This document shows, piece by piece, positions 11,045 to 57,979 of a stretch of 64,000 bases of DNA (within the stretch, counting starts at the first letter, position 1; each line of letters starts with the position of its first letter). The position numbers and the translations under genes were made by a program. The notes under the pieces were generated by a model. The model was not told the origin of the DNA, made no database searches, and was given only the letters and a program-made list of their open reading frames with translations. Source of the stretch: a virus (taxonomy: Duplodnaviria; Caudoviricetes); the IMG/VR virus record IMGVR_UViG_3300028591_000013, positions 1 to 64,000 of that record; one strand, given 5' to 3'.

Positions 11045-14000
11045 ATGCCAAAGAGAACTATAAAAAACAAACAAAAGTACTCATTGGATCAAGAAACACG
11101 TCGAGGGATGGAGCTACTTCGTCACCTCGACGATGTTATTGATCTTGGTACAGCGATATAGTCGCACGATCTGGAAATGATTTCCAAGATAGATTCTGAT
11201 GCCGTTAAACAAAGGCGTCAGAATACCGAAGAGTATGAATGGGAAGAGCAAAAGGAGAGAGAAGCTAAAGATTCAAATGACGTAAAACAATCAATAGAAG
11301 ATTCTAGAAATTCTATTCTTGGTTAGCTAGCAGAAGCATCTTCTCCGTCTGGAGGTATTGGGAATGAAGCAGATGCGCAAAATATAGTAGCTGCAGATGC
11401 AATAGGTATAGCTTATGGGCACATACAAGCAAAAGATATCCCAGGAATGCCCGAAACCTATAGAATGTCTGATTTTCTAAAAGATTAGTGGAATTCGTTC
11501 TTTGGAGAAATGAACACTCTTCAAGCAGAAGATGCTAAAGGATATTAGGTTCGTTCTCAAAATGATAAGAATCTCATAAAAGACTATCTCAATTCATTAG
11601 ATACGCTTGATGAAATAGATAATATCAATGGGGAGCTTGAACAGATAAATAATGCTTTATAGCAAGGTGGCTTATCTGTAGAAAATAGACAATCTTTGAG
11701 AAGTAGAACAAGTTCTCTTATTTAGTAGAGAAATATTTTATAGGCAGAATATGAAAGTCTTGCGCCAAATAGAAAATTACTTGAAGATACTGTAAATCAA
11801 TCTGGTGTAGGAGCAGCTTGGGACGATTTAATGTCCGGCAATGGTATATTTGGCGGTAACTGGGCAAATCCTGCAGGTAAAGTTACTGCAGCTCACGATG
11901 AACTTAATGATGCCCGTAGATTTATATACGACCTTGGAAAAGGTACCAGAAACAGGAAGGAAACCCGTTAGATGCTTAATAGGGCTCTTCAAGAATACGA
12001 CAACCTTAATGAAGGGTGGAACGCTGTAATAGAAGAGAATGAGCGCGATGCTAAATATCACAAAGATAAGATATCCAACTGGTTCCAAACAAGAGCAGAT
12101 AGAACTGGCATAAATTTTACAGATCCTGATACTTATTTGTTTAAGATGCCAGGCATCATCGGAGGTTCCTCTAGTTCTTATATGAAGTAGGTACCTGCAA
12201 TGCTTTCTTCTATATTAGGTTATGCTGCAGCTAATGTTGCTACGGGTGGCGGAGCATTACTTGCTACTGCTCTCGGCGCAGCAGGATCTTTCGCCATGAA
12301 CCGTGCGGCAGGTATATCTGAAAACAATGCAGAAGTTGCTTTAGCTACTAAAGAGAAGATAAAAGCAAAGACAGACCTTACTGACGAAGATATAGATAAA
12401 CTTATTGCTGGTAAGTTAGACGATCCTAAGAAACTTCGTACAATAACAGAAAACATAAAAGACGTAGAAAATCTGTTCAATCAAGATATGGCTGCTACTA
12501 CATGGGATGCTGCTATAGATGCAGCTCTTGGCGCAGTACCGGTAGGAGCTATTGCAAAGATGAATAGATTTGTACGTGGTACAAAAGCTTGGAGAAAGGC
12601 CGTAACAAATCCTACTATGAAGAAGATTCTCCGTAGTAAGTTTGGAGAAGACATAGTAAAAGGATGGGAGGCTGGAAGTGTAGCTAGTCCTTTAGTTGGT
12701 GTTGGGGCAGCAGCCGCAAACGCTACTGTAGGCAGGGCAGTTAAGAATGGAGCAGCAGGTCTTAAAAATCTTGTAGTTAGAGCTACAGATAATACATTAT
12801 ATGGAGCTCTTGCACACGATATGGCTAAAGAGATGTCTTTACTTGGTAAGACTGCAAAAGCACTAGATCTTGATAAAATAGCTGTAAACCGGGCTATGAA
12901 AAAGGGTCTTGGCGCGCAATACATGAAAGACATTGCCGGCAAGGTAATCAAATCTACTATTGCAGAAGGTATTGAGGAAGGTAAATAGCACGTTAACGCA
13001 GAAGCTTATAAGAATTCTTATCAGAATGACCCAGAGTTAAATAGTACGCTCGATATAGCTCTTACAGATGCACTAAACGGACTCACAATGGGCTCGTATG
13101 TGCTCGGCATTCCTTTGGATGGACTTGGTATAATAAATATAAAAGACCAAGATCTTTTACAAGAAATCAAAGGAGGTATGCTCGGTGGTTGGGGACAAAC
13201 AGCAATGGTAAATGTTGCTCAGAATATTGTTCCTTATATTAGTCAGCAGAAAGCTGCTGATATTATTACAGAACAGATATTTAATAACAAGCTGTCTTCT
13301 ACTGCGTAGAGAGACCAATATAGACAATGGTTAAGCAAAGGTTTATTTAAGCCTGGGCATCAAGATATACTCAATTCGTTTGATAGGCTTCGTAAAATAA
13401 ACGAAGAATATCAATAGACAAACGGATAGGTGGGTATAGCTCCGCAACAAATAGATGAGGCTCAGTAGAAATATGAACGCATAATAAGCTTAGCAAAAGA
13501 TCCTTTAATGCGTTAGTCTGCAGAAGACCAAGGAATTAACGTAAGAACAAAAAATAATCCGCTTACGTGGAAATCCAATAGTCAGTATCACGACTATGTT
13601 GCTACCATAGCCACAGCTATGGATAGAATATAGGAAATTGCGTAGAATAGAAATGAAGCTGCAGTAAATCTCAATTAGATAAAATAGCAAATACAAACAA
13701 ATCTTTCTATATCCGATGAAGGTTTGAGCGAGGTATTAAACGCATTACAATCTAATGAAGAATCAGACGATCTCATAAATCGTCAAAACGAAATAGAATC
13801 TGTAGGAAATACAGTAATGACTGAAGGATAGTCTGATTTTGAATATACTGACATTGTTGCACAACTAGCAGCGTTACTTACGTACAGAGATCAGATTGAA
13901 CAGGGATTAAAATTACAGCAAGATAATCCTTCTGCAAAGGTTCGTAGGGGTTTAAAAGGCCAACTAGATAAGCTAAATAAAGATATAGACGAATTAATAA

Positions 14001-17000
14001 AAGTCAACGAAGATAAATTTGTACATTAGCTCGGTATATCTATAGGGAAAGACTTTAAGACTGGAGAAGAATTACAATTGTTTAAAAATGCTAAACAAAG
14101 TCTTAAAACTCTCGCCGATGTAGAAGATCATCTGGCATATAACGAAGAAGCTCACGAGCAACTTAAAGAAGCTTATCTTGATCTTATAAAATGGAATAAC
14201 GAACTTGATTCTGCAAATAAGTCTTTTGAAAATCTAGTAGGAAAACGCGAACAGGATGAAAATGGAGAAATGCATTATGTTGGTGGAAATGCTGTAAATA
14301 CAATGAAGAATATACAGCAGATAAAAGATGCCGACGATGCGTTTGAACAAGCTGTAGAACAAGTATTTCAAGAAGATTTAAAAGCTTAGCATCTCAATGA
14401 AGAAAATGCTTGGCGTGAACAAGAAATAGAGCCTAGAATAAAAAAGCCTGTATTGAACTCAAAGGGAGAACAGATACAGGTATAGAGAAGTTAGGATGGA
14501 TATATAAACAGACGTCTAGCAGATAATGAGACTGTAGATGACCTTGGGTATTTATGGAAATACGAAGACGGTAATCCAGACGATCCTTTGAACAGAATAG
14601 ACAGAGGCGCCATTACTCCTGCCGGTAACGCAGAACAAGATCGTAGAGCATTTAGAGATGCTTGGGCTAACATTACAGGCACTCAGCTTCCTCTTACTCC
14701 AGAGGGTATGGTAGAGCGTCGTCAGAGAACTTTATTTGAAGAAGCTAGAAAGAACGGATGGCCTGAACCAGCTCCAGAGCCAGAAAAGAGAACAGACTAT
14801 AAGAGTTTGGTTGAGTCTTACTATGAAAGAAGAAATAGACTTGTTCCTCCGTCTACTCCACCAACCCCACCTACTCCTCCTATTGTACACAATGACGATC
14901 CTCAACAAGATGTACTTGATATGTTAGAAGCCAAATACGAAGAGGATAAAAAAGTTGTACAAAACAATCCTGATGGATATGACACCACGAGTCAAGACTA
15001 TTTTATTGAAAACGACGGAAAAATAGTAAGAGCCTCTCGTGTACATAATATTAAACCAGAATCGTATAATCGTCCGGATCAAAATAAACAAATAGAAGAT
15101 ATATATAATCGCTTTAAAGAAGCCAAATCGTTAAAGGATGTAGAAGATATAATGATAGAATATGTCGATCCAAATCCAGACGAGTTTGAAGAAATTCATA
15201 CATATCATTTATATATTTAGGATAATTAGAACACGTTTTTTAATAATCCAACAAGCGATTCAATAAAAGAATATCAAACAACAATAAGAAATCTTTCTCA
15301 AGCAATAGTAAACAATTGGCATACAGCTGGAGTATCTGTGAAGGTTGGTAATGTTGTAGATGAACTTTTAAGAAACTTTTTTGGCTCTTTTGAATTTGCA
15401 GACTATGCTCAAACAGAAGAAGGTATAGAAAAGCTATTCAACGGGTGGACTACCGAATCGGATGGCCGTGCATATAAAGAAATATTTAAAGGTAACATAG
15501 AACCTTTTAAAAATCTTATACACGATTTACAGAATCAATACGATTATTATACTAAAACGTTAAAATGGAAATTAAGTACACTTCCATTTACATGGAGAGC
15601 TAAGTTTAATGAGCTTGGTTGGGTTGCTGGTCAGACTGATATGATTGGTGTGGATAAAGAAGGAAAGGTTCATATTATAGACTTTAAAACTTCTAAATAT
15701 ACATTCTGGAATGCATATCCACCAAACATACAGCTAACGTCTACTTATCAAAGCGATTTAGGTATACTTACAGAAGATGATTTTTATACTGATTCTGGTA
15801 GATTAAGTAGAAAAGCTAGGAATGTTCTTCGCGCTATTAAGAACGACAATAAAAATTCTAAAATAGACTTAGAGTGGCAAAACGGTCGAGCCGTTGTTGT
15901 AAACAAGATAAGACCTTTTGTAAGTCTTCCTAATGTACAATATGGGCAACAGTTGTCTTCATATGAGGATTATAGCAACCAGCTTACTGCTTATGCAGAA
16001 ATGATAAAAGCTGAAGGATTTGATGTAGCTTCTATAGAAATACTCCCAATTAAAGTTCAATACGATTATGAGTTTACTGAAGCCGGTAATGGATTAAATA
16101 GTGCTACATTAGAACCCAGAGTATTCCTTACGTTCAGCAGCAAGATGTTAAATATTCTTGACGGTATTGAATCTAGAGACTATCAGGCTTTATAGAATGT
16201 AAAAGAAGATTTGCATAATTCTATAGGACATATTGACTATAAGTTGTCGCAACTAGAAGAGAAGGTAACAGACGATGTGTTCAATGAATTGTCAGAACAA
16301 GGCAAGCTTCTTTATTCTGATTTTGTTACACAAGTAAATAACATCGTTGCAGAAGTAGATTAGACTCTGTATAACACAAATTTTAAAGACGATATTGATG
16401 TATATCGCTCTTAGTTATCAGAAGTAGATAGGTTGTTAGAAGAGTTTGATCAGTTCTTAAAAGATCTTAGAACAGATTATAATTAGGCTAGGCTAAAAGC
16501 TACTCAACAAGCTGAAAACGAAGCTAAACGAAATCTTTAGAAGCAGAGAGAACAACAAGCTGGTCCAGCTGTAGGTACTGTACAATCTCCAAATAAGAGA
16601 GACAGTCAAGGTAACGTTAGTCACACTAACTTGAATTATCAAAGAATAAATGGGGATAGAGAATTAGCGCTTGCTACAATAGCTCCAAACTTTATAGATG
16701 ATGCAGATATTACTCTATATATAGATGGAGATGATATATACTGCGACATTCTGTTTGAAGGTAAGACTTGGCAAAGGGTGCTGATTGATTCTAAGTACAA
16801 TAATACATGGATGCCAAACGGAAAGATGTTGTATGACACAATAAAACAACTTCAATCCGAAGCAAAACCAGGCGAGAAGATCGTGCCTGTTAAGGCTACA
16901 ATGTATAGAACCAACGGTAGAATAAATCTTGCTGTAGATAAAGATGGTAAACTTACTTACAATGATGTAAGAAATACCGATTTGTTTGCTGGTCAGGATA

Positions 17001-41457: not shown

Positions 41458-42004
41458 AAGAGTTTACTGCTTTTTGTTCAGTATCCTGCATTTCTTCCTC
41501 AATCGCTTCCCATTGTGAACGCGTTAACCAATTCCACATAGTCATCATATAGCTTAGACTACCTTCACGCATGCGTTTAGATATCTCATAGTCGAGACAC
41601 TTTATAATGTGTTCGGCCATTGCACTACTTCTTCCACATTTAGTATTGAAGAAATGACGACATTTGTTTACATTAGCTCGCAGATAAGATTTACTCCCAT
41701 CTGCTCGTGTTACATACACTGGGTACATATCATAGAAGACATCAAAGTAGTCCTTCTTAGGAAGAACTGCTTCTTTAAGCTTGTCTGTCGGCTGATATGT
41801 AATTGACTCGCCGCTCTCAATCGCGGTTACTAGTTCTTGATTGACTAAGTATGATATTTCGTCGTCGCTTATAAGGCTGATAACGTTGCGGACGTCTTGA
41901 TATATTGGTTGATTCTTACCCAATATCATACTTAGGAATACTAACTGATTCATAGATATACCTGGAAACTCGTCCAGGATTTTTGTGTTTACTTCAATAA
42001 TCAT
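41438..42004 (-). CDS. Putative replication initiator / replisome organizer
   Basis: FDVFYDMYP and WNWLTRSQWE motifs; lies between PolB and DnaB. Confidence 0.55.
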   Translation of the reverse strand: MIIEVNTKILDEFPGISMNQLVFLSMILGKNQPIYQDVRNVISLISDDEISYLVNQELVTAIESGESITYQPTDKLKEAVLPKKDYFDVFYDMYPVYVTRADGSKSYLRANVNKCRHFFNTKCGRSSAMAEHIIKCLDYEISKRMREGSLSYMMTMWNWLTRSQWEAIEEEMQDTEQKAVNSYGTDII

Positions 42005-43944
42005 AATTGGTCATCAAATAAACTTAGTTGCTGTTCAGTGAAGTCGGCAACTATCTTTTTTGCTTCACTGATGTAGTAACGATAGTTAATCTTTCGATCT
42101 TCTATCGGTCGATCATCAAACTTATTCAGGATAGTTACCCCTGATTTAGTTAACATATTTTGTTCGTTGTACTCAGGAACAGTATACTCACCAGCAGGTC
42201 CTGCATTTGACAATTCCCACTTATAAGTTTTTCCTGCATCTTCATTATATTTTCGTTTAAACAATGAATATCCATTTGTACTTGCATAGAATCTATTAAT
42301 GCGCTGCACTCGATTTTCTCCGTGCCACACTTCGAACTTCTTATCAACCTGTTGGCTCATAAGAAAATCTCTGATATCTCTATCAGATTTAATAAATTCT
42401 TCTATTGGTTCTCCTTTCACAAAGTAGTTTATCACCGCCTTTGGTATAACCACAGGTGCAAGTCCTTTGCCTAACTTATTTTTTGTAATAAACATACCTT
42501 TTTCCTCTATCTCCCCGCCTTTTAAGACACCAAAGTAGTCATTAATAGCGTATTGATAGAACGCTTCGTATTCGTCAGATTCGAATTCTAGACGTGTAAG
42601 GGCTTCCACCTCCTTAATAGCGTCTGAAACAGCCTGTTTAAGGCCATTTTTAGCCCTGTAGACGACACCATCAGTGTTGCACTGAATAATTTCACATCCA
42701 AGCTCTAAAAGCCTGTCTACGAGCAAAAGAAGGATTAACTGACCGTTAATTCTTATCCTGAAAACATTAAAAGGATCGTACATCCAACTCACTTCCTGCT
42801 GCATTTTACCAGTAGGTGAGTTGAGCACAATCTTTAGAAACAAGTTTTTAGTCTTCTGACCAGTACGTTTCGCTTCTAGCCTTTCGGCTTTCAACTGGGC
42901 AAACAGTTCGCGAAATATTTCTCCACCTTGACGGGGGCCAAATCCGTATTCGATTAGCAAACTAGGGTACATTGACGCCACATCAGCGTGCCCTATGAAC
43001 TCGTCAGCTTTAGGAAGGAATATCATTGGTGTATGTATAGTATGGATACCACCTACACCAACAGAATATACCACATTCGAGAGAACAAACTTCTTCTCGT
43101 AGCCTTTTCGCTCCTTAGAATATACTACCTGTTTCTTCATATCTTCTAAGACGCTCTGTAACTTTGGGTTTTTGTATTTTATATATGGCAGAATTACATC
43201 CTTCAACGGAATATAATCCATAGGAGAACGCATTTCCTTTATAACATTTTTCGGAATACCTGATTTCTCACTAAATTTCTCAAGCAAGAAGGTTTCTGCC
43301 ATCTTAACAGAGTCCATAGATAGACAATCGATACCGTGTTCCTGTTCAATAAACAAACGTAACTCGATATCTGGTTGTAGTCTATAAAATAACTCTGTAG
43401 TAGATTCAACATCGTTAATGTTGTACTCAATCATTTCATCTATCTTATCCACAGGGATAGGTAGTGTGAAATCACCGTCGTACTCCTGCACGTTTTTGTA
43501 GTGCATTGTTACTTGCATGGTCTTAAGACCTACGCGCAGTTTCTGACTAAACTGCATGGTTAGTAAATCCATTGAATAGAAGTACTTAGCATACTTCCAC
43601 CTTTTGAAGGGGATATCTCCACCTTCTTCGGATTCTATAATTTTCTGTGATAAGTTGGATACAGATTGACAGACTCTCCACCAAGGGAGTTGATCGAGTT
43701 TATAATAATAATCGATCATATAGTTTATAATAACATCATCATAATGTTTATTGTTATATCCACAGAACATTCTGTCGTTGTTCTTATAAAAGAAGAAATC
43801 AACTAACTCAGTTAGCTGATTCCTTCGTTCAGATATCTCAAATTTTATGACTTTGTTGGTTTCTGTATCTTTTACACAGCAATGGAAGCAATTGCTAAAC
43901 ACCTCTATGTCATATACATTTACACATAGGTCTTTAATCTTCAT
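42001..43944 (-). CDS. polB: Family B DNA polymerase with 3'-5' exonuclease
   Basis: Exo I YDIE, Exo II GYNNKHYD, Exo III YNINDV; Pol motifs DVASMYPS, KIVLNSPTGK, NTDG; C-terminal QLSLF. Confidence 0.93.
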   Translation of the reverse strand: MKIKDLCVNVYDIEVFSNCFHCCVKDTETNKVIKFEISERRNQLTELVDFFFYKNNDRMFCGYNNKHYDDVIINYMIDYYYKLDQLPWWRVCQSVSNLSQKIIESEEGGDIPFKRWKYAKYFYSMDLLTMQFSQKLRVGLKTMQVTMHYKNVQEYDGDFTLPIPVDKIDEMIEYNINDVESTTELFYRLQPDIELRLFIEQEHGIDCLSMDSVKMAETFLLEKFSEKSGIPKNVIKEMRSPMDYIPLKDVILPYIKYKNPKLQSVLEDMKKQVVYSKERKGYEKKFVLSNVVYSVGVGGIHTIHTPMIFLPKADEFIGHADVASMYPSLLIEYGFGPRQGGEIFRELFAQLKAERLEAKRTGQKTKNLFLKIVLNSPTGKMQQEVSWMYDPFNVFRIRINGQLILLLLVDRLLELGCEIIQCNTDGVVYRAKNGLKQAVSDAIKEVEALTRLEFESDEYEAFYQYAINDYFGVLKGGEIEEKGMFITKNKLGKGLAPVVIPKAVINYFVKGEPIEEFIKSDRDIRDFLMSQQVDKKFEVWHGENRVQRINRFYASTNGYSLFKRKYNEDAGKTYKWELSNAGPAGEYTVPEYNEQNMLTKSGVTILNKFDDRPIEDRKINYRYYISEAKKIVADFTEQQLSLFDDQL

Positions 43945-45815: not shown

Positions 45816-45863
45816 TTTGATAATGTATTAAATTAAACATGTTATCTGGCCTCTTTGCCATTG

Positions 45864-45934
45864 TTGGACCACCGAGATTCGAACTCAGACGATAGGACCC
45901 AAATTCCTATGTACTACCATTATACTATGGTCCA
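45864..45934 (-). tRNA. tRNA-Gln(UUG)
   Basis: TGGACCA/TGGTCCA acceptor (U1-A72); TAGGA-ATTTGGG-TCCTA; CTGAG-TTCGAAT-CTCGG. Confidence 0.85.
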
Positions 45935-46516: not shown

Positions 46517-46578
46517 AAGCGTCTTGATTTAAAAAGTGAAACATGTTAATTATCTGAATTCGAGATCATTTACCTACG

Positions 46579-46788
46579 TAACTTATAGTGGTTGCGAGCT
46601 ACTATAAGTTAAAATTAGACTATGATCTGCATATAGTCCCCCGCAGAGTCCAACAGATCATAGTCTAATATATTTTTATTTTTGTTTTCGAATATTCTAA
46701 TCAGGATGTACAATATCCAGATAGTCTAAACTAACACACGTACCACGTATAGACAAGCCCGCAGACCCTCTATACAACCCCCGCAGAG
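46579..46788. repeat. Two perfect hairpins plus three CCCGCAGA repeats
   Basis: TAACTTATAGT/ACTATAAGTTA (46579-46611); ATTAGACTATGATCTG/CAGATCATAGTCTAAT (46614-46669); CCCGCAGA at about 46640, 46758 and 46780. Confidence 0.7.
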
Positions 46789-46804
46789 GTTTGAACGTAC
46801 CCGT

Positions 46805-47407
46805 TTAGTGTCGACCACCCTTCCAACGTACATTTAAGACTTCAAATACATCTCCAACAGCATCCCGAACGGTTAGGAAACCGTCTGGGTGTGTGTGTCG
46901 AGGCTCAACCTCAACTTCGATGCCACCGGCATACGGGCATGAGTTAATATGGTGGTGAGGAGGATTATCCTTCTTCAGTCCCTTATCACGCCAATATCCG
47001 TCATCGACTATGTGTCGACATACGTCGAAGAATCTATGGAGAATATTCTGATCCTTGCTATGAATACCCTGCAAAAGTACCTCTCGCGATAGTCCCTCTG
47101 CAATAGCTTCATGTGCTACAGGATTAGTTGTCATCTCCAGCAATGCGTCCCACACCTTGAGATAAAAATCATCAAATGTGATGTGGTCATAACACCCTAT
47201 AAGTTTATTCCAGAAACCGCTAAACCCTCCCCAAGAATACTTGGCGAAGTATATTCGCTCTTCTTTTCCGTCAATCTTATATTGTGTATATTCTCGTGCT
47301 TGAGCCATTAGTCCCAAACAGACTTTCTGTCGAATTTTCGGTTCCTTCAACAGATAGCCGATCAAGTCTTCAGCACCAAGCACTCCTTGTGCCTGGTTCT
47401 CTGCCAT
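46805..47407 (-). CDS. Hypothetical protein, 200 aa
   Basis: Clean ORF, closely coupled to the upstream gene. Confidence 0.75.
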   Translation of the reverse strand: MAENQAQGVLGAEDLIGYLLKEPKIRQKVCLGLMAQAREYTQYKIDGKEERIYFAKYSWGGFSGFWNKLIGCYDHITFDDFYLKVWDALLEMTTNPVAHEAIAEGLSREVLLQGIHSKDQNILHRFFDVCRHIVDDGYWRDKGLKKDNPPHHHINSCPYAGGIEVEVEPRHTHPDGFLTVRDAVGDVFEVLNVRWKGGRH

Positions 47408-47412
47408 AGCTA

Positions 47413-48021
47413 TTATGCTTCAACAGTAACACTCACAGCACCGCTGCCCATATCAACCTCGGGCTTGAACTTGTTGATGGCCTCCTGGTAGTCAAGAGCC
47501 TTCTTCTTGTTGGATGCGATAGTAGAACGGATAGAGTCACAATAGCGCTCAATCTGATTCTTCAGAGCAACCCAACGATCAAGCTCAGCCTGGTTCAGAG
47601 CATTGGCCTTGGTTACGGTCTTAATACCATCTGCGAATATACGTAGCTCACCACGAAGAGCGTCCTTCATGGCGTCATCGGTAGTCTGACCGAAGGTCGA
47701 ACCACCTGCCACAATCGCAGCGCGGCTCTCATCACCCATGCCCTTATTGAAGATAACTACGTTGTTACCATCGATATCCTGGGCAAACTCCTGGCTCAGT
47801 ACGCTGTGGCCAATAACGTTAATAGCGCGCGGTCCACGATTCGTAATAAGATCGGGGCTCTGTGGGTTCTGAAGAAGCTGGTTCTTTGTATCGTTGAATT
47901 TCAGATCTACATCTTTACCTTCAACTGTAAAATACTGTGCTCCCGTAGGAATCATACGGGAAATGTTCATTACCTGACCACGAATGGGGTTCAGGTTGTT
48001 TTCCATTTCAATATTGTTCAT
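47413..48021 (-). CDS. Hypothetical protein, 202 aa
   Basis: Clean ORF; TATCAAAAA leader. Confidence 0.8.
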   Translation of the reverse strand: MNNIEMENNLNPIRGQVMNISRMIPTGAQYFTVEGKDVDLKFNDTKNQLLQNPQSPDLITNRGPRAINVIGHSVLSQEFAQDIDGNNVVIFNKGMGDESRAAIVAGGSTFGQTTDDAMKDALRGELRIFADGIKTVTKANALNQAELDRWVALKNQIERYCDSIRSTIASNKKKALDYQEAINKFKPEVDMGSGAVSVTVEA

Positions 48022-50303
48022 ATTTATGTCCTTTTTGATATCGTCAGTGATTGACTAACGACATAAATGATACATATGTCCTCTCGGCTCGGACGTTGCC
48101 ATAAAAAATTACTACAATTCTCTCTTCAGGCTGGCTACTGTCATTATTGGCTGTACAAGATATAGTGTTTCTTATTTTGTTCTTAATCTGGTTGTGCTAT
48201 GCATATGGGAAGCGCGTTTACTTTACACACATAGTTATCAATATATTCCTCATACATCCCCTGCGAACAGGTCGTGAAAGTCATGATAACGGAGGGCCAA
48301 ACGGTATGGCACAGAATATCCATCAGTGTGAAAGGACCAAAAGCGCTAAATGCCAAGATGTGCAATCAAGCACCAAAAACGAAACACAATATTGAGTTTG
48401 GTAATATTTTGTCGAATCATATTTCCCATGCGGTACTAATCCGACGGAAGTTTGTTCGTTGGCAGCATTCCATTGACTAATGCTCAAGGCAAAATTTCAA
48501 TATTGGCTACTGTTCATAGAACTCAATAAAGTGCAGTTGGTTTTCGAGTATTTACCAAATATTTCTAAAACTTACTGCCTTACTGTTGTGACCCGGTCTT
48601 GCGATACCGAGTTAGGCACAGCTACCCCTGTTCTGGTTTTAAAGTGGTCAGAACAATCAATACCCCACCGTTTAGTTTATCAGCTTTTGGCATCTCAGGC
48701 TAAATCTAACCTGTTCATTATCGGACATGACCTAGGAGCTCCAAAACTCCATCATGGATCTACGGCTTTTTACTGTACATTCAGCTTTGCTGCTGGCTTC
48801 TGTTTATAGTGCACGAATACTGGAGGAATTCCACCTCATACGCTATAAGATTTATCACCCACTTAATGTTCCGCTTCATCGGTTTGCAGTAGTACTAACT
48901 CCATTACAGAGGTTTCATACTGTTCACTTTACCCCTCCGAGACAGGGAGGTGACTTCACTTCGCGATAAGCTGCCTTGCATCGTTTGCGTATATTGCTTC
49001 ATAGACTAAGCCGATTAGTTAGATTTGCAGTCTAACCCCTAACTATTATCTATCCTGCTACTTGCTTCTCAGGAACGGTTGGCACTCGGTTCTCTATCAT
49101 ACGTCTAAAATGGCTATGTTTCTTCAATACAACAGAAGGACACTTTTCTAAGGCGTTGAACATAACGTAATAGATTTCATAGAGGGACATCCAATTTTGT
49201 TTAATAATGTTAATTATCACACACTCGATTATTTTCACATAGTTTATCCTTATGCAATCAAGCTATACCGCACATGAGTTTACTACTCTCACTGATATAG
49301 TACAGCAGTGTTGCGAACTATGTTATTATCTTCTCGTGTCGAGCGATCTCCGTATATACTGGAGTGTATAAACTTCGAATCGACCCTAATGTAAGTTTGA
49401 ATACTTGAGTTTTGACTGTCAGGTTGTCATCCTTCGACTCCAGCATTTCCTCTGGTACATCTCCAATCTATATTACTTAACTATCGCTTACCATAGTCTT
49501 TCATAACTTTAGAATAGTCTTACTCGCGGACTTCACTCGCGTGGCATTCAAGCATCAATGCCCTACTTCGCCATAGGTAGCGCCATCTACCTAGCGGTCA
49601 TTTTCTCTTTTATATACCGAATAAACGACCAAAAGCTCATCGGTTGTCTTCATCACATTTTCCTCAGTACCCCATCCCCGGTGACCCAGTGGGACCGTAG
49701 CCTCAAAGGTGGTCATCTAGTAATCGAAACTAGAAGGATTTCTTCAAGGACCGTAGTTACGGTACGGCGTAGATTGTCAAGCCATCTACTTGGCTAATAT
49801 GCTCAGACTCGTCCCTCAATGCAGGTTTTGGAGACCTGTGACACTAGACTACAGCTAATTGTGAATTGATACATCATCCTACGTTGTGGCATATTTCGGA
49901 TGTTCAGCTCGTGTAACGTGATTTTACTACTATGTATCATTATAGTAAATCTATCGATACGGTTCAGTTTAGAGCTACTTTGAGATTACTCTCATTTCGT
50001 TTTACTCTGTGCGTCTTCCTTACTAATATCCCTCACTTCACGAGTCTGGCAAACGCATAAAGAACGTTGCTGGTATATATTAGTGTTGGGGTCTGATACA
50101 GACGCTCTCCCCACTTACTATGAACTTTTCTGTGTAGAGTATAGTTACACATCATAGCATTTCATCCTACCTTTTGGGTTTCTCACCTGTTGAGCAGGCT
50201 AACATATTCTCGGATCAAGTATATACTCTTGCGCGCCCGGCTAATGAGACCGTTTACATGGCGCTGACGGGTTGCCAAAACTGGCTAGGAAGCCAGTGAA
50301 TCC
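48022..50303 (-). ncRNA. Candidate giant structured non-coding region (about 2.3 kb)
   Basis: No credible sense-strand ORF; dense short and nested inverted repeats. Strand assumed from flanking genes. Confidence 0.45.
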
Positions 50304-50798
50304 TCACTGGCCTCCCACCCCGGAGTGATTGTCGTTTTTGGAGTATACAATCTCATCGTCGACAATGAGCTGTATAGATGTAGCTTTAGAAGCTACAACA
50401 GAGTCCTTGGGCTGCTCCTCACGACCCATTGTACTGTTGTTACTCAGAGCAAGCTTCATACTGTCTGGATTGACAGCCAAAGGATGCATTCCTGAGTCAC
50501 GTGCTGTAGTACGATCAGCAACGTCTTTATAACGAGTCTTCCAACGTATTTTGGTTTCCCATCGTACGCTATCAATGATATTGATAGAGTCTTTGACCTT
50601 GGGAGATTCGCGCGAGAGTCTCTTATCCAGATCGAACTGGACGTCGAGTGGCAATCCTGGTCTATCGAAAACGATAGGCTGTGGCACAGGTTGCGCCATC
50701 GCGACCTTGTTGCTAGGGAACTGGAAGTTCTGAAACGCGGTTGCACAACCGAGAATCATCATAGCAACGCAACAGATAATTGTTGTTAATCGTCTCAT
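50304..50798 (-). CDS. Putative exported protein or lipoprotein, 164 aa
   Basis: MRRLTTIICCVAMMILGC signal peptide / lipobox-like N-terminus. Confidence 0.7.
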   Translation of the reverse strand: MRRLTTIICCVAMMILGCATAFQNFQFPSNKVAMAQPVPQPIVFDRPGLPLDVQFDLDKRLSRESPKVKDSINIIDSVRWETKIRWKTRYKDVADRTTARDSGMHPLAVNPDSMKLALSNNSTMGREEQPKDSVVASKATSIQLIVDDEIVYSKNDNHSGVGGQ

Positions 50799-50840
50799 AC
50801 TTTGATAGCATTACTAGGCGAATACATAATCGCGAATTCC

Positions 50841-50888
50841 GCGGACAAAAGGCGTAACGCGCTCCTTAATCCGCTTTATGAGTTTTTT
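50841..50888 (-). other. Predicted -1 ribosomal frameshift signal
   Basis: In-frame A AAA AAC (50888-50882), 7-nt spacer, then hairpin GCGGAT…GTCCGC (50874-50841). Confidence 0.6.
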
Positions 50889-52303
50889 GACTCGCCCTCA
50901 CTTTCATCGGCCTTCTTCTCTACAGTGCCAAATTCGATAAGATTGCTCTCAGAGTAATCATCGCTCTTAGCAAGAGGAGAACTGAACATATTCAGGATAA
51001 TACCAGCACGCTGCTGAACGTTCAACAGAGCAGACTCAAACTCCAGCTCAGGAATCTCCACATCACTGTAATAAGTGTTGAAGATCTCCTTCTTTATAGC
51101 GCAAGCACTAATATAATTAGCGTTGGTCTTATCGTTATAAATAGCGATGAAGTTGTCTACAACGTCGAACGACGGGTCTGTTACCAGAGAGATCATACCA
51201 GTGAAGTGTGCAATAGCACTCTTCAGACCAGCAATCTTCTTGGTCTCAGTTTCGATACCCTTGGCATTAGCCTTCTCATCCTTCTTCAGGACTTTGATGT
51301 TCTCTTCCTTAGCCTTTATGGCTTCACTCATCTCTGCGTTCTTTGCAGAAACATACCATACGATAAGCACGCGAACCAACGATGCAATCGTCGCATCATC
51401 ATACTTATACTGCTTGGTCTTCTTATTGTAGAGACAGTTCTTGAATCCACAGAAGGCAGGAATAACACTGTTAGCATCTTCTGCGAGAGTGCACAGACGC
51501 TTGCCGAATCCCGTAAGCACAAAGGTCGGTTTGACCATTGTAATAACGTCCTGAAGGAGAGCAGCGAGATCGAGCTCGTGCACCTTAGCAAGTTCAGCTT
51601 CCGAGTTCTCGGCATTAGAGGCGCGGAATTCCTTATAGGATCTGTAGAACTGAGCTGTTGTGATAAGACGCTCAATCGGATTAGTGATCGCGGGGTTAAG
51701 GAGTTGAAACTCAAGCGCCTCCTTCAACTGATCATCAGTCTCAATCTTAGTGTGGTCCTTGGTATAATCCTTATTCTTAGCGTTCTCTATCGCAGCATGT
51801 TCAGCTTTCTTCTTCTCCTTTGCCTCTTTGGTTATATTCTTATCTTCGATCTGCAACATCACCTGATTAGGTGCTGCACTAAGACCAGCCTGTGCGAGCT
51901 GTTCTTTCGTAGGCTTCGGAAGGGACTCATAGCTGGGTACGTTAACACCCATGTCCTTTGCAAGAGGTACAAATACACCCTCATAGTTAGCCTTATTGAT
52001 AGTAAGAATACTTCCAACTGGGTTCTTGCGAATCACTACCTCTGTTAAAGTAGTGTCAAGAAACAGAGCATCCTCAAGAAGCGTAAGAGCCTTATACTTC
52101 TCAGGGTTGTTCTCATTATTCTTCAGCATCTCATCCTTTCTATGCTGAGCATACCCGATCATGTCAGCTTTGTGATTCTGATCAAGACCGCTGGGAATAC
52201 CAGGGATCTCAACCTTTGCCTCAGTAGTAGCAGGAACAGTATCTTCCTTCTTTTCTACCACAGGAGCTTCTACTTCGGGCATTTTTTTCTTGTCTTTTGC
52301 CAT
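50876..52303 (-). CDS. Hypothetical protein, 475 aa (possible frameshift-extended isoform to 50814/50811)
   Basis: Long clean ORF with high-expression-type codon usage. Confidence 0.85.
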   Translation of the reverse strand: MAKDKKKMPEVEAPVVEKKEDTVPATTEAKVEIPGIPSGLDQNHKADMIGYAQHRKDEMLKNNENNPEKYKALTLLEDALFLDTTLTEVVIRKNPVGSILTINKANYEGVFVPLAKDMGVNVPSYESLPKPTKEQLAQAGLSAAPNQVMLQIEDKNITKEAKEKKKAEHAAIENAKNKDYTKDHTKIETDDQLKEALEFQLLNPAITNPIERLITTAQFYRSYKEFRASNAENSEAELAKVHELDLAALLQDVITMVKPTFVLTGFGKRLCTLAEDANSVIPAFCGFKNCLYNKKTKQYKYDDATIASLVRVLIVWYVSAKNAEMSEAIKAKEENIKVLKKDEKANAKGIETETKKIAGLKSAIAHFTGMISLVTDPSFDVVDNFIAIYNDKTNANYISACAIKKEIFNTYYSDVEIPELEFESALLNVQQRAGIILNMFSSPLAKSDDYSESNLIEFGTVEKKADESEGESKNS

Positions 52304-52400: not shown

Positions 52401-52787
52401 TCATGAATCATTAAAGAACATTTGCCAAGTTGGTTGTCCACGAGCAGATGTGTGGACTTTACTCAAGACATTGTTGCTCAGATTGACATAATCATCCTTA
52501 CTCACAGGCTTCGGGGATTTCTCCCGCAGGGTTGCTGAAAGAGCAACGTCTGTCACTGTGGTAAATACGCACGGCGTACCTTCCAGCACCTGTGTGGGCA
52601 TAGTGTCAATCATAACAACTTTGTCTTGTTTCTTTTCGCTGCTCATTGTATTAGACACGATAGTGCCTGCAACAAATGCTCCTGTAAAAGAGATGAACAG
52701 CTTCCAGAACAGCGCCTCATCGCGGTTATAGCGAGCTATACCGATACATGTAGCCAGTCCTGCTAAGAACCAAAATAAAGTCATCAT
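52401..52787 (-). CDS. Membrane protein with 2 TM segments, 128 aa
   Basis: Two N-terminal hydrophobic helices; ATGA-coupled to the sigma factor gene. Confidence 0.75.
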   Translation of the reverse strand: MMTLFWFLAGLATCIGIARYNRDEALFWKLFISFTGAFVAGTIVSNTMSSEKKQDKVVMIDTMPTQVLEGTPCVFTTVTDVALSATLREKSPKPVSKDDYVNLSNNVLSKVHTSARGQPTWQMFFNDS

Positions 52788-53341
52788 AATTTTAATTTTT
52801 TTAATTGTTTACGTCTCCGAGAGAGATGTGATTTTATCGTACCCTCTGGGATTTTGAGAATATTACTAATCTCACTTACTGTTAAGTTGTCTATGTAATG
52901 CAGTTCGAAGACTTTACGGACGTCTTCTGGGAACCGATTAAACTCTTCGAGTATTTGATTATAGGTAATCTCGTCGACGGTGGATTCCCCATAATCTACT
53001 TCCTGAGCGATATCAAAGACACAAGGTCCTGAACTCTCAGGCACACACACGGTTGGTTTAAGTTTACGCAGATAATCAACAGCAGTACGGTTAGTCAGCA
53101 CACGTAGCCATCCTCCAAATGAGGAATAGTCTACGAATTTAGAGAGTTTTTTGTAAACCTTATCCCAGACAATATTGTTAATCTCTCTGGCCTCATCGTA
53201 ATCTTTGAGGTATTTGTACAAAATGTTCGTTGTGAACTTCTCATACTTATGATAAAGTTTATCAAACGCAGGCATGTAGCCTGCTTGAGCACTTTTGATA
53301 AGAGCTATTTCTTCTTCAGTAATCTTCGGATTCTTAGCCAT
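52784..53341 (-). CDS. ECF-type RNA polymerase sigma-70 factor
   Basis: AFDKLYHKY…FGGWLRVLTNRTAVDYLRK (region 2); VFELHYIDNLTVSEISNILKIPEGTIKSHLSR (region 4 HTH). Confidence 0.9.
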   Translation of the reverse strand: MAKNPKITEEEIALIKSAQAGYMPAFDKLYHKYEKFTTNILYKYLKDYDEAREINNIVWDKVYKKLSKFVDYSSFGGWLRVLTNRTAVDYLRKLKPTVCVPESSGPCVFDIAQEVDYGESTVDEITYNQILEEFNRFPEDVRKVFELHYIDNLTVSEISNILKIPEGTIKSHLSRRRKQLKKLKL

Positions 53342-53398
53342 ATCAAACAAATTTAACCGGTTATTAAGGTGTCACTCCTGTAACAGACGGTGCTGTAT

Positions 53399-54536: not shown

Positions 54537-54638
54537 TGTTATTTAATTAATCTCTTAAGAAAGTTCTTCTACACGGTCCCCTGCGACTTTTACATCAGGA
54601 ACCAGCCTACCCTCCCAAGTTGCCCTCGAAGAACTATG

Positions 54639-54712
54639 TGGACCATGCAGGGCTTGAACCTGCGACCTCCAGATTATGAGTCTGTTGCTCTAACCAACTG
54701 AGCTAAAAGTCC
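54639..54712 (-). tRNA. tRNA(CAU), most likely Ile2
   Basis: GGACTTTTAGCTCAGTTGGTTAGAGCAACAGACTCATAATCTG…GGTTCAAGCC…GGTCCA. Confidence 0.9.
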
Positions 54713-55010
54713 AGATGCAGGCACTTAGGTAGCCTGCTCACCGACTTCACGCTGCCTCCTTGAGGCCCGTGTAGTCAACGATGTTCATATCGCCGTTTAA
54801 TTTTATGTCAAAGCGCTTAATGTCTTTACTTCCTTCGCCCGTCAAAATCCTGTCGAGCCCGGAATGCCCACATGAGGCCTACGAGTGGGCTGCGTAGATA
54901 GTCACCCCTTATTCGCTCTATGTGACAGATAGAACTCGGGACTTGCCGTGGACCCGGAGGGATTCGAACCCTCGTCCGAACGAAATACCTCAGACACGCT
55001 AAGATTTCTT
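54713..55010 (-). ncRNA. ssrA: Circularly permuted two-piece tmRNA
   Basis: Acceptor piece (…GGACGAGGGTTCGAATCCCTCCGGGTCCA, ends 54949) lies upstream of the coding piece (GGGCTCGACAGGATTTTGAC, starts 54860). G3·U70 and A73 present; tag frame 54794-54747 = GDMNIVDYTGLKEAA*. Outer ends approximate. Confidence 0.88.
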
Positions 55011-55223
55011 TAGTTGCAGCTTGTCAAATTGAGTATATGGTTAATACTACTCTGCAACCCAGCTGAATCTCCCAATGATCAGTTGGAAAATCCAATTTAA
55101 GGCTATTTACAGGCTCTTTGACGCGTTTTCTAGCCTCTTGTGGGTAGCGAACCCACTCAAGGATATACGACGCCTCAAATCGCTTATAACGTCACCTTAA
55201 ATGTTCTACATTGACCATGCTCT

Positions 55224-55694
55224 GGCTCAAAGGCTCGCACATAGTATATAGTTCACATTCTTGATATGTTGTGCAGTGTCTATATCTCGTCAATGAGAAT
55301 TCCTTCTAGGAGCACCGGCTCAAAGGCTCGCACACAACAGTGATTTGATCAAATGGTCCAATATATTTTAACAGCGTTGGCTCGCTGCTTACCTGCGGAC
55401 ACGTCTCGCGTAACATAGAAAGGAACTACTAGTTTCTATATAATGTACAAAAATTATATGTAGGCATAACGCTCTCAACACACGCTTCCGGTAAAACCGC
55501 TTTGCTGGTGTATTTATCAGGTTAAATAACCATTTTGAATTCTTATACAAATATATATCCACTAGTAGTATAATTTCCTTTCTCATACTCTGGCTCTAGT
55601 CCAGAATGTCGTTTCATTCGTTTTCACAGACAGGGCCCTCCCATGGTCCGTCCATTCGTTCACATCTGTCTACAGGTACTGGCTCAAAGGCTCG
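55224..55694. repeat. Dispersed repeat GGCTCAAAGGCTCG(CACA), 3 copies
   Basis: Copies at 55224-55241, 55317-55334 and 55681-55694. Confidence 0.75.
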
Positions 55695-57433: not shown

Positions 57434-57572
57434 CGTTTGATACGAATTAAATTGTTAATAATTTATGTTAATTAAACCCAAAAAGATTCAATTTAAAATG
57501 TCCTACCAGATGTTTGACATTACATCTCCCAACCTCACGTACGCGAAGTACGCCCCTTAACCTCGGACATAG

Positions 57573-57644
57573 TAGTCTATAGCAGAGTCGAACTGCTCTT
57601 TAGAGAATGAAAATCTCTCGTCCTAACCGATAGACGAATAGACC
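57573..57644 (-). tRNA. tRNA-Glu(UUC)
   Basis: GGTCTATTCGTCTATCGGTTAGGACGAGAGA-TTTTCAT-TCTCT…GTTCGACTC…ATAGACTA. Confidence 0.9.
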
Positions 57645-57906
57645 GTGTGTACTGTTTTCACCGACTTGACGAGGTCAGACGATACTACCGTGAAACGTCG
57701 GATCTTCAGGTACAGTACTAAACCTATGGGTTGTGGGGTGTTTCACAATACCCCACACTGGCAACACTTCTTTGTTTCTCAACAAATAATGCTCGACTGC
57801 ATAGATACAGATGTACGTATGCTATGAGTCTGTGTTCTCTTTCTGGAAAACCAAAACCATTAAGAATGAACAATCGGTTTAACATTATAAAGTAATGCCA
57901 TTATTG

Positions 57907-57979
57907 CTGGGGAAGGCGGGCTCAAACCGCCAACATCTAGATCCAGCGTCTAGCGTTCTATCAATTGAACTATTCCCCA
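57907..57979 (-). tRNA. tRNA-Gln(CUG), non-canonical (G33)
   Basis: TGGGGAA/TTCCCCA-G acceptor; CTAGA-CGCTGGA-TCTAG; GGCGG-TTTGAGC-CCGCC. Confidence 0.7.

Follow-up and report, generated by a model that had tools for sequence, protein, structure and literature searches.

A conserved non-coding tract with covariation-supported RNA structure as a candidate new RNA family in Suoliviridae crAss-like phages

Introduction

Among phage-encoded RNAs, the closest described systems to the element presented here are GOLLD and ROOL (Rumen-Originating, Ornate, Large): both are phage-borne and encoded near transfer RNA (tRNA) genes, both include disordered linkers and assemble into multimeric cages made only of RNA, and neither has a known protein partner or function (PMC12286853). 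The element itself is a tract at positions 48022-50303, minus strand, of the first 64,000 nucleotides (the window, which is the whole stretch of DNA analyzed) of IMG/VR record IMGVR_UViG_3300028591_000013, a complete virus of 103,568 bp with direct terminal repeats, whose closest public relatives are the uncultured crAss-like phages cr272_1 and cr273_1 (Suoliviridae, Oafivirinae). In the human and animal gut, Crassvirales count among the most abundant viruses; to our knowledge, no member of the Suoliviridae has ever been cultured. The tract is the whole interval free of open reading frames (ORFs) between the genes for a 164-aa and a 202-aa protein, and positions along its sense strand are given as p = 50304 - window coordinate. 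A first-pass annotation of this DNA had proposed a very large structured non-coding RNA (ncRNA) or a cluster of ncRNAs. This proposal is supported, on comparative evidence: with a probability of about 0.85 the tract is a functional structured RNA gene, and it appears to represent a new RNA family specific to Suoliviridae.

Comparison with known large RNAs

Like GOLLD, the tract is encoded by a phage and is very large; covariation supports its intricate fold, and its loops and junctions are highly conserved. It also lies near tRNA genes, includes a poorly conserved or disordered internal segment and has no known protein partner (PMC12286853). The two differ in length, about 2.1 kb for the tract and about 0.8 kb for GOLLD, and no sequence or structure match between them is detected by cmscan. 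Their distribution is also different: GOLLD is found in Lactobacillales, mycobacterial or marine phages, whereas the tract occupies one fixed syntenic locus in a single family of crAss-like phages infecting Bacteroidota. ROOL shares with the tract the location in phages or prophages, partly from rumen or gut samples, the proximity to tRNA islands, the presence of pseudoknots (multiple in ROOL) and the lack of a known protein partner; conversely, the tract has no Rfam match, is more than three times longer than ROOL (about 580-660 nt) and is different in its modular layout. The earlier statement that the tract is longer than both RNAs is correct (GOLLD, >800 nt; ROOL, about 660 nt; PMC12286853), and the tract exceeds the largest comparable phage RNA in length by a factor of about 2.5. 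OLE RNA and the raiA-motif RNA are also large ncRNAs defined by comparative analysis; differently from the tract, they are cellular and about 200-600 nt long, OLE has known protein partners, and no homology with the tract was detected. The size of the tract falls between those of 16S and 23S ribosomal RNA (rRNA), with which it shares a multi-domain organization, locally closed domains and GNRA loops; it matches no rRNA model, and no ribosomal-protein genes lie near it. The features by which "ornate" large ncRNAs are defined, as a class used operationally by the Breaker and Weinberg labs, i.e. a length above about 500 nt, non-coding character, extensive covarying structure and highly conserved nucleotides in loops and junctions, are all found in the tract.

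The cmscan check against Rfam (release Rfam 15), suggested by the first-pass annotation and run on the whole window, gave no match in the gap at gathering thresholds, and a search at E-values up to 10 on 47900-50450 gave a single chance-level small nucleolar RNA match. No rRNA, RNase P, transfer-messenger RNA (tmRNA), group I or II intron, GOLLD, ROOL, OLE or HEARO is recognizable in the tract by the Rfam 15 scan. The covariance models of GOLLD (RF01998), including its conserved 3' core, and of ROOL (RF03087) gave no match, either at the gathering threshold or at E-values up to 10, and ARAGORN detected no tRNA-like element within the gap. No description of this RNA was found in Rfam 15 or in the searchable literature, where subscription journals are only partly covered, and non-coding regions are unmentioned in the main crAss genomics paper and in a Crassvirales review.

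The Intron_gpI, Intron_gpII and group-II-D1D4 models also gave no match at E-values up to 10, a result that bears on the proposal that the tract is a self-splicing group I or II intron, or another mobile ribozyme, with the 164-aa and 202-aa ORFs as the possible halves of one ancestral gene. Group I introns abound in Suoliviridae (review PMC10136315), and ORF-less group I/II introns resemble the tract in being large, multi-domain, self-folding RNAs common in these phages; they differ from it in that the tract is 3-8 times longer, is immobile and interrupts no gene. Indeed, both flanking ORFs are complete, with their own stop, Shine-Dalgarno sequence (SD) and start: the upstream ORF is closed by a stop codon, and the downstream gene starts from a conserved SD and ATG of its own. 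The locus is fixed, shows no sign of mobility and contains no homing-endonuclease or reverse transcriptase ORF; that no fused or longer homolog of the downstream protein was found is weak evidence in the same direction. An intron at this site is hardly credible.

Introns are a separate matter for the DNA polymerase of the Uncouvirinae phage cr118_1 (L189 12001-14288), for which two pieces are annotated (12001-13197 and 13566-14288), separated by a small ORF; such an arrangement is consistent with the group I introns described for Suoliviridae PolB (PMC10136315).

Conservation and distribution

Blastn detects 82-91% identity in short patches within the gap in six phage records, and none in the flanking genes. 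An empty gap of 1.9-2.2 kb is located at the same syntenic place in 10/10 public Suoliviridae records examined (GenBank/RefSeq entries, six identified by blastn and four through protein or polymerase homology), which span Oafivirinae, Loutivirinae and Uncouvirinae. A motif from the best-conserved block fetched 58 loci from IMG/VR and at least 119 from metagenomes. Both flanking genes are included in 96 of these loci; in 76 of them the length of the gap is 1971-2367 nt (median 2190), and seven of the remaining 20 were checked and have a gap of about 2.07-2.25 kb once a chance inner ORF is discounted. Because this set had been fetched through the RNA itself, an independent set of 80 loci was chosen by PolB homology alone (61-98% identity), of which 34 extend at least 6.8 kb upstream. 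A nearly full-length match to the RNA profile (about 2-2175 of 2176 positions) was found in 34/34 of them, 3.2-4.8 kb upstream of PolB. Phages kept outside profile building are also recognized, Burzaovirus over positions 35-2174 (E-values of 1e-204 to 1e-206) and the Loutivirinae member cr56_1 over positions 3-1889 (4e-83). Every relative examined has the tract in full length and in collinear order at a single fixed locus, and it is single-copy in each genome.

The tract is also better conserved than the genes around it. Compared with the window, relatives have a median nucleotide identity of 0.56 across the gap and of 0.43-0.44 across the flanking genes, and the downstream 202-aa protein has 26-37% identity to its relatives, while blocks of the RNA reach 82-91%.

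A covariance model, R1, built from the 5' subdomain at 50087-50221, scores 138.5 bits on the window, from which it was partly built, and recovers members that are unseen by blastn and by the motif, namely Burzaovirus (86-88 bits) and cr56_1 (59 bits). On the Uncouvirinae phage cr118_1 the R1 match is weak (27 bits) and correctly placed in the 1.9-kb gap. This syntenic gap of 1.92 kb (MT774379.1, L189 5545-7464) has no nhmmer match, and probably hosts a highly diverged form of the same RNA. Nothing significant was found by R1 in the whole records of crAss001 (Steigviridae) and cr8_1 (Intestiviridae), a result that speaks only for the recognizability of that subdomain; as far as R1 can see, the RNA family would be confined to Suoliviridae. 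The hallmarks adopted for a new family, i.e. a full-length collinear match to R1 or to the alignment described below (A1), at a syntenic site between the genes for the transmembrane protein and the about 200-aa protein and upstream of PolB, are found together at this locus.

Non-coding character of the tract

The absence of a convincing ORF in 48022-50303, on which the first-pass annotation was based, holds on closer inspection. Stop-free runs reach 110 codons at most on either strand, against 99 +/- 21 in shuffled sequence, and the sense strand contains 51-63 stops in each frame. A six-frame scan under code 15, which the first-pass annotation had indicated as a check, and under other codes (TAG=Q, TGA=W, TAA=Q) extends the longest run to 134-145 codons at most and reveals no hidden ORF. 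The period-3 power of column entropy is 0.86 times the median in the tract, whereas it is 146 and 50 times the median in the two flanking genes, which show the expected excess at the third codon position.

A hidden or decayed coding sequence, based on an alternative code, on many small ORFs or on a pseudogene remnant, is thus very improbable, even though short ORFs are annotated inside the gap in some public records: no genetic code opens a frame and no period-3 signal is present. Six-frame comparison with 27 relatives reveals peptide similarity in overlapping frames on both strands, the pattern that nucleotide-level conservation yields. Inner ORFs of 101-130 aa occur in a few lineages, where they are lineage-specific and junk-like, and the distance between the flanking genes stays at 2.07-2.25 kb. 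Moreover, the tract is better conserved than true genes nearby and is therefore not decaying. ORFs annotated inside the homologous tracts in public records are very likely spurious calls. Two opposite-strand "hypothetical protein" ORFs are recorded in such tracts, at L006 4297-4803 (PV686213.1 ECCNAKDA_00150) and at L187 4138-4620 (NC_055895.1 gp52).

Covariation and predicted fold

The consensus fold was predicted by RNAalifold on A1, a MAFFT alignment of 33 representatives below 93% identity, with a median pairwise identity of 57%; it comprises 251 pairs in 53 helices, distributed over the whole tract. Canonical combinations occupy 89.7% of the cells in predicted pairs, against 34-42% when the partners are slid by 1-3 columns; double substitutions, counted in at least two sequences, are found at 138 pairs against 45-61 in the slid controls, and compensated cells are 1076 against 200-278. 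The first-pass annotation had indicated conservation and covariation among relatives as the check to be made, and both are strong. Many hairpin loops are near-invariant, e.g. CUCAA, CAAAA, YNGUAAM, CNGCAAA, UGGAAUU and UACCGUU. An all-against-all helix search on the MAFFT alignment, in which antiparallel runs barely exceeded the parallel controls (276 against 236), was dropped in favor of RNAalifold with slid controls and of pair counting.

All the structural features are given on the minus strand. The 5' structured core, about 1.55 kb long (48714-50259; sense 45-1590), is made up of several locally closed domains, with about 44 helices supported by covariation. Its best-conserved 5' subdomain (50087-50221), the basis of R1, consists of GAGAAUAUGUUAGCC-hairpin-GUGAGAAACCCAAAAGGUAGGAUGAAAUGC and two more hairpins; its 23 pairs are 94.3% paired, 18 of them with changes on both sides, and 116 cells are compensated against 32 in shuffles, with 0/500 shuffles as high. 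Downstream, all five pairs covary in the 5-bp hairpin CAGGU/ACCUG (49822-49838; helix 466-470/478-482). Covariation also supports an H-type pseudoknot (49511-49541), in which the loop of a CGCG/CGCG helix (AGUC, A.G) pairs with downstream GACU and CU; together with the next hairpin, this region includes 16 pairs, 92.2% paired, with 102 compensated cells against 30 in shuffles (0/500). The crossing helices of the pseudoknot themselves covary, as at pair 18-31 (UA 13, CG 5, AU 4, GC 4). A 7-bp helix, ACAUAGUU/AACUAUGU (49237-49323; helix 981-987/1061-1067), with 7/7 covarying pairs, closes a variable insert of about 75 nt. The following multi-branched domain (48801-49207; sense 1097-1503) is closed by long-range helices according to RNAalifold covariation: AGUGC (49082-49086) pairs with GCACU (48808-48812), about 270 nt apart, beside the near-invariant GAGUGCCAACCGU and AUUCGUGCACUAUAAAC, and this long-range helix (pairs 231-236/605-611) shows GC to CG compensation in three sequences. 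Realignment of domain 4 yielded only 15 pairs, because its variable inserts misalign.

The core is followed by an A/U-rich linker of about 330 nt (48379-48713; sense about 1591-1925), which is variable in sequence and has no family-wide consensus structure in the alignment, while its length is kept (271-371 nt). The 3' structured part (48196-48373; sense 1931-2108), about 180 nt, has six covarying helices and the conserved loops UUGAAU and UACCGUU; helix 2014-2019/2065-2070 is 98% paired, with five covarying pairs. This layout can also be read as a tandem cluster of independent smaller ncRNAs, either one of about 1.5 kb and one of about 180 nt, or five or six of 200-400 nt each. Indeed, most supported helices are local, the domains close on themselves at 200-400 nt, the linker is unstructured, and a helix joining the 5' and 3' ends of the tract was looked for and not found. 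Conversely, the modules keep their order and spacing in all relatives, within a fixed total length, and no single one is lost, gained or shuffled; the scan of the minus strand revealed no internal terminator-like sites, and disordered internal linkers also occur in GOLLD (PMC12286853). A cluster is possible, though on balance unlikely.

As a whole, the fold of about 250 pairs, with a long-range multi-branched domain and at least one pseudoknot, is kept up by compensatory changes. The comparison shows a conserved, single-copy, non-coding element with base-pairing under selection, and such selection can act only on RNA.

The density of hairpins in the single sequence is a different matter. The tract had been described as hairpin-dense, and this part of the first-pass annotation does not stand: the mean folding z-score, calculated on 300-nt windows with 40 dinucleotide shuffles apiece, is -0.25 in the gap (14 windows), against -2.5 in the flanking coding DNA (16 windows). 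Structure inference from single-sequence stems is weak, because this z-score is not significant. Of the six stems originally listed, those at 49822-49838, 49237-49323 and 50131-50151 match covariation-supported helices, the last one by prolonging a covarying helix. The other three lie in variable parts: the stem at 50281-50296 is a genuine hairpin followed by TTTT, yet lineage-variable, while those at 49543-49562 and 48629-48655 have no family-wide support. The flanking coding DNA (46551-48021 and 50304-51800, minus strand) folds markedly better than its dinucleotide shuffles, with z-scores down to -4.3, differently from the tract.

Strand, boundaries and tail hairpins

Reading of the RNA from the minus strand is favored by the distribution of GNRA tetraloops (27 on the sense strand, i.e. 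the minus strand of the window, and none on the antisense), by the excess of G-U over A-C (184 against 117) at the 165 pairs predicted by RNAalifold on both strands, by the RNAalifold consensus score (-246 for the sense, -217 for the antisense) and by the orientation of all the neighboring genes. The same asymmetries bear on the proposal that the tract works at the DNA level, for instance as an origin of replication, as a site for packaging or recombination or as a protein-binding array. The tract is indeed located in the replication-gene arm and its linker is A/T-rich; however, compensatory changes affect about 50 short hairpins with conserved loops, the pseudoknot and the long-range helices, G-U is tolerated above A-C, and GNRA loops occur on one strand only. 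No repeats or iterons were found, and cumulative GC skew has no inflection at 48-50 kb. A function exerted by the DNA itself is very unlikely.

At the 5' side, directly after the upstream stop codon, a lineage-variable hairpin, CUGGCU-UCCU-AGCCAG, is followed by UUUU (50277-50297); it may serve the upstream gene as a weak terminator or be a 5' hairpin of the RNA. The 3' tail, about 170 nt, has two hairpins, one bearing a GAGCC-type loop and, after it, a covarying one around the SD. The first, GUCC-GAGCCGAGA-GGAC (48078-48094), was left out of the core RNA; in most relatives its place, between the giant RNA and the next gene, is taken by a GAGCC-N3-GAGCC loop hairpin with a variable stem, and it is likely a boundary or regulatory element.

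A related motif is present elsewhere in the window: GAGCCUUUGAGCC occurs three times on the minus strand (55224-55236, 55317-55329 and 55681-55693; 0.27 expected by chance), always in loops and with differing stems, in the non-coding stretch immediately upstream of the tmRNA gene, and single GAGCC loops lie near these copies, at 55383 and 55596. GAGCC hairpins could be phage-specific promoters, terminators, processing sites or protein-binding hairpins that mark the boundaries of transcription units.

The second tail hairpin, UUAUGUC...GACAUAA (48024-48066), is conserved and encloses the SD, AAGGA, of the 202-aa gene; its helix 2238-2247/2271-2280 is 97% paired, with five covarying pairs, and the loop of its inner hairpin, AUCAA, is invariant, with UAUCAAAAAGGA after it. 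By its appearance, this tail hairpin would control translation of the 202-aa gene. As an alternative explanation, the entire tract could be a giant cis-acting spacer or leader in a polycistronic early mRNA, controlling stability, processing or translation of the 202-aa gene with no action in trans. The tract is on the same strand as both neighbors, no promoter or terminator was recognized, and its tail ends in the hairpin just described. Nevertheless, 2 kb with about 250 conserved pairs and near-invariant loops far exceed the needs of any known leader, a variable A-rich stretch separates the SD and GAGCC hairpins from the core, and the core is far better conserved than the gene that it would regulate; this explanation is unlikely, and somewhat less probable than the cluster.

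Genomic context

All the genes around the tract are on the minus strand. In the local 5' to 3' order, they start with an extracytoplasmic function (ECF)-type sigma factor (52784-53350), followed by the genes for a 128-aa and a 475-aa protein and by the gene for the 164-aa membrane-anchored protein (50304-50798), immediately upstream of the tract; immediately downstream is the 202-aa gene (47413-48021, with its ATG at 48019-48021), and then four further small protein genes, with a tRNA-Gln among them, lead to PolB (42001-43944). For the two flanking proteins no Pfam, PHROG family or PDB sequence match was found. According to AlphaFold, the 164-aa protein has an N-terminal transmembrane helix, the rest being of low confidence and mostly disordered (predicted local distance difference test, pLDDT, 62), while the 202-aa protein is predicted as a small beta domain with a long C-terminal helix (pLDDT 81), without a fold match: Foldseek gave none at E <= 0.001, and VIA-align retrieved generic coiled coils only (Z <= 4.5). 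A homology search with the 475-aa protein led to one related locus. The two proteins downstream of the tract were considered as possible paralogs, and their comparison shows that they are not. The neighboring proteins offer no lead to the function of the RNA.

Several RNA genes are found in the same arm, also on the minus strand, so that the tract, as in the case of GOLLD, has a phage location near tRNA genes. A tRNA-Gln (UUG; 45863-45934) lies 2.1 kb downstream of the tract, whereas a tRNA-Met (CAU; 54638-54712) and a phage tmRNA of the permuted form, with the tag GDMNIVDYTGLKEAA (54656-55038), lie 4.3 kb upstream; tRNA-Glu (UUC; 57572-57644) and tRNA-Gln (CUG; 57906-57979) belong to the same early arm.

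Possible role and significance

The RNA would be produced in the early/middle programme, together with the neighboring minus-strand genes for the sigma factor, tRNAs, tmRNA and replication proteins, and its 3' end is probably delimited by the GAGCC hairpin together with the A-rich stretch, at about 48078-48195. The RNA would then fold into several autonomous domains and may take part in host takeover as a trans-acting "ornate" scaffold that folds by itself, made of RNA alone or as a ribonucleoprotein; its way of working may resemble that of GOLLD and ROOL, with a possible involvement of the translation apparatus. As a mechanism, a trans-acting scaffold or assembly RNA is suggested tentatively, at less than even odds.

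Some points weigh against this interpretation. The scaffold role is proposed by analogy only. The raw covariation counts are inflated because the MAFFT/RNAalifold alignments hold related sequences, and the shuffle and slide controls by pair counting cover two subdomains only. The single-sequence folding energy is no better than that of shuffles, and about 330 nt in the middle of the tract show no conserved structure that could be detected, which leaves room for two RNAs. The strand assignment is based on moderate asymmetries, and the antisense scores well with RNAalifold too (-217). Finally, no conserved promoter or clear terminator was found by the scan of the tract, for which a sigma-70 consensus was used; this consensus is probably unsuited to Bacteroidota or to phage polymerases.

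On the analogy with GOLLD and ROOL, the trans-acting scaffold is favored ahead of the tandem cluster and of the giant cis leader, and the DNA-level, coding and intron explanations are each unlikely. More ambitious is the idea of a single RNA of about 2.1 kb, the largest non-ribosomal structured RNA of any phage or bacterium, which would be an RNA machine in its own right and not a passive leader: for instance, a self-assembling compartment, or a particle engaging the ribosome or translation factors for taking over host translation or for switching between standard and TAG-recoded programmes. This is improbable on the present evidence.

The strictly conserved tract of 2 kb accounts for 2% of a tightly packed genome, and its conservation is higher than that of the neighboring proteins. 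In public records it is either left empty or filled with spurious ORFs; the covariance model can help annotators to remove such calls and can serve as a marker of the family. The RNA would also be a rich target for cryo-electron microscopy and for probing what such RNAs do. The small group of giant "ornate" RNAs from phages (GOLLD, ROOL) would gain a member in a new size range and in a new host phylum, and the tract may represent an unrecognized core component of these phages.

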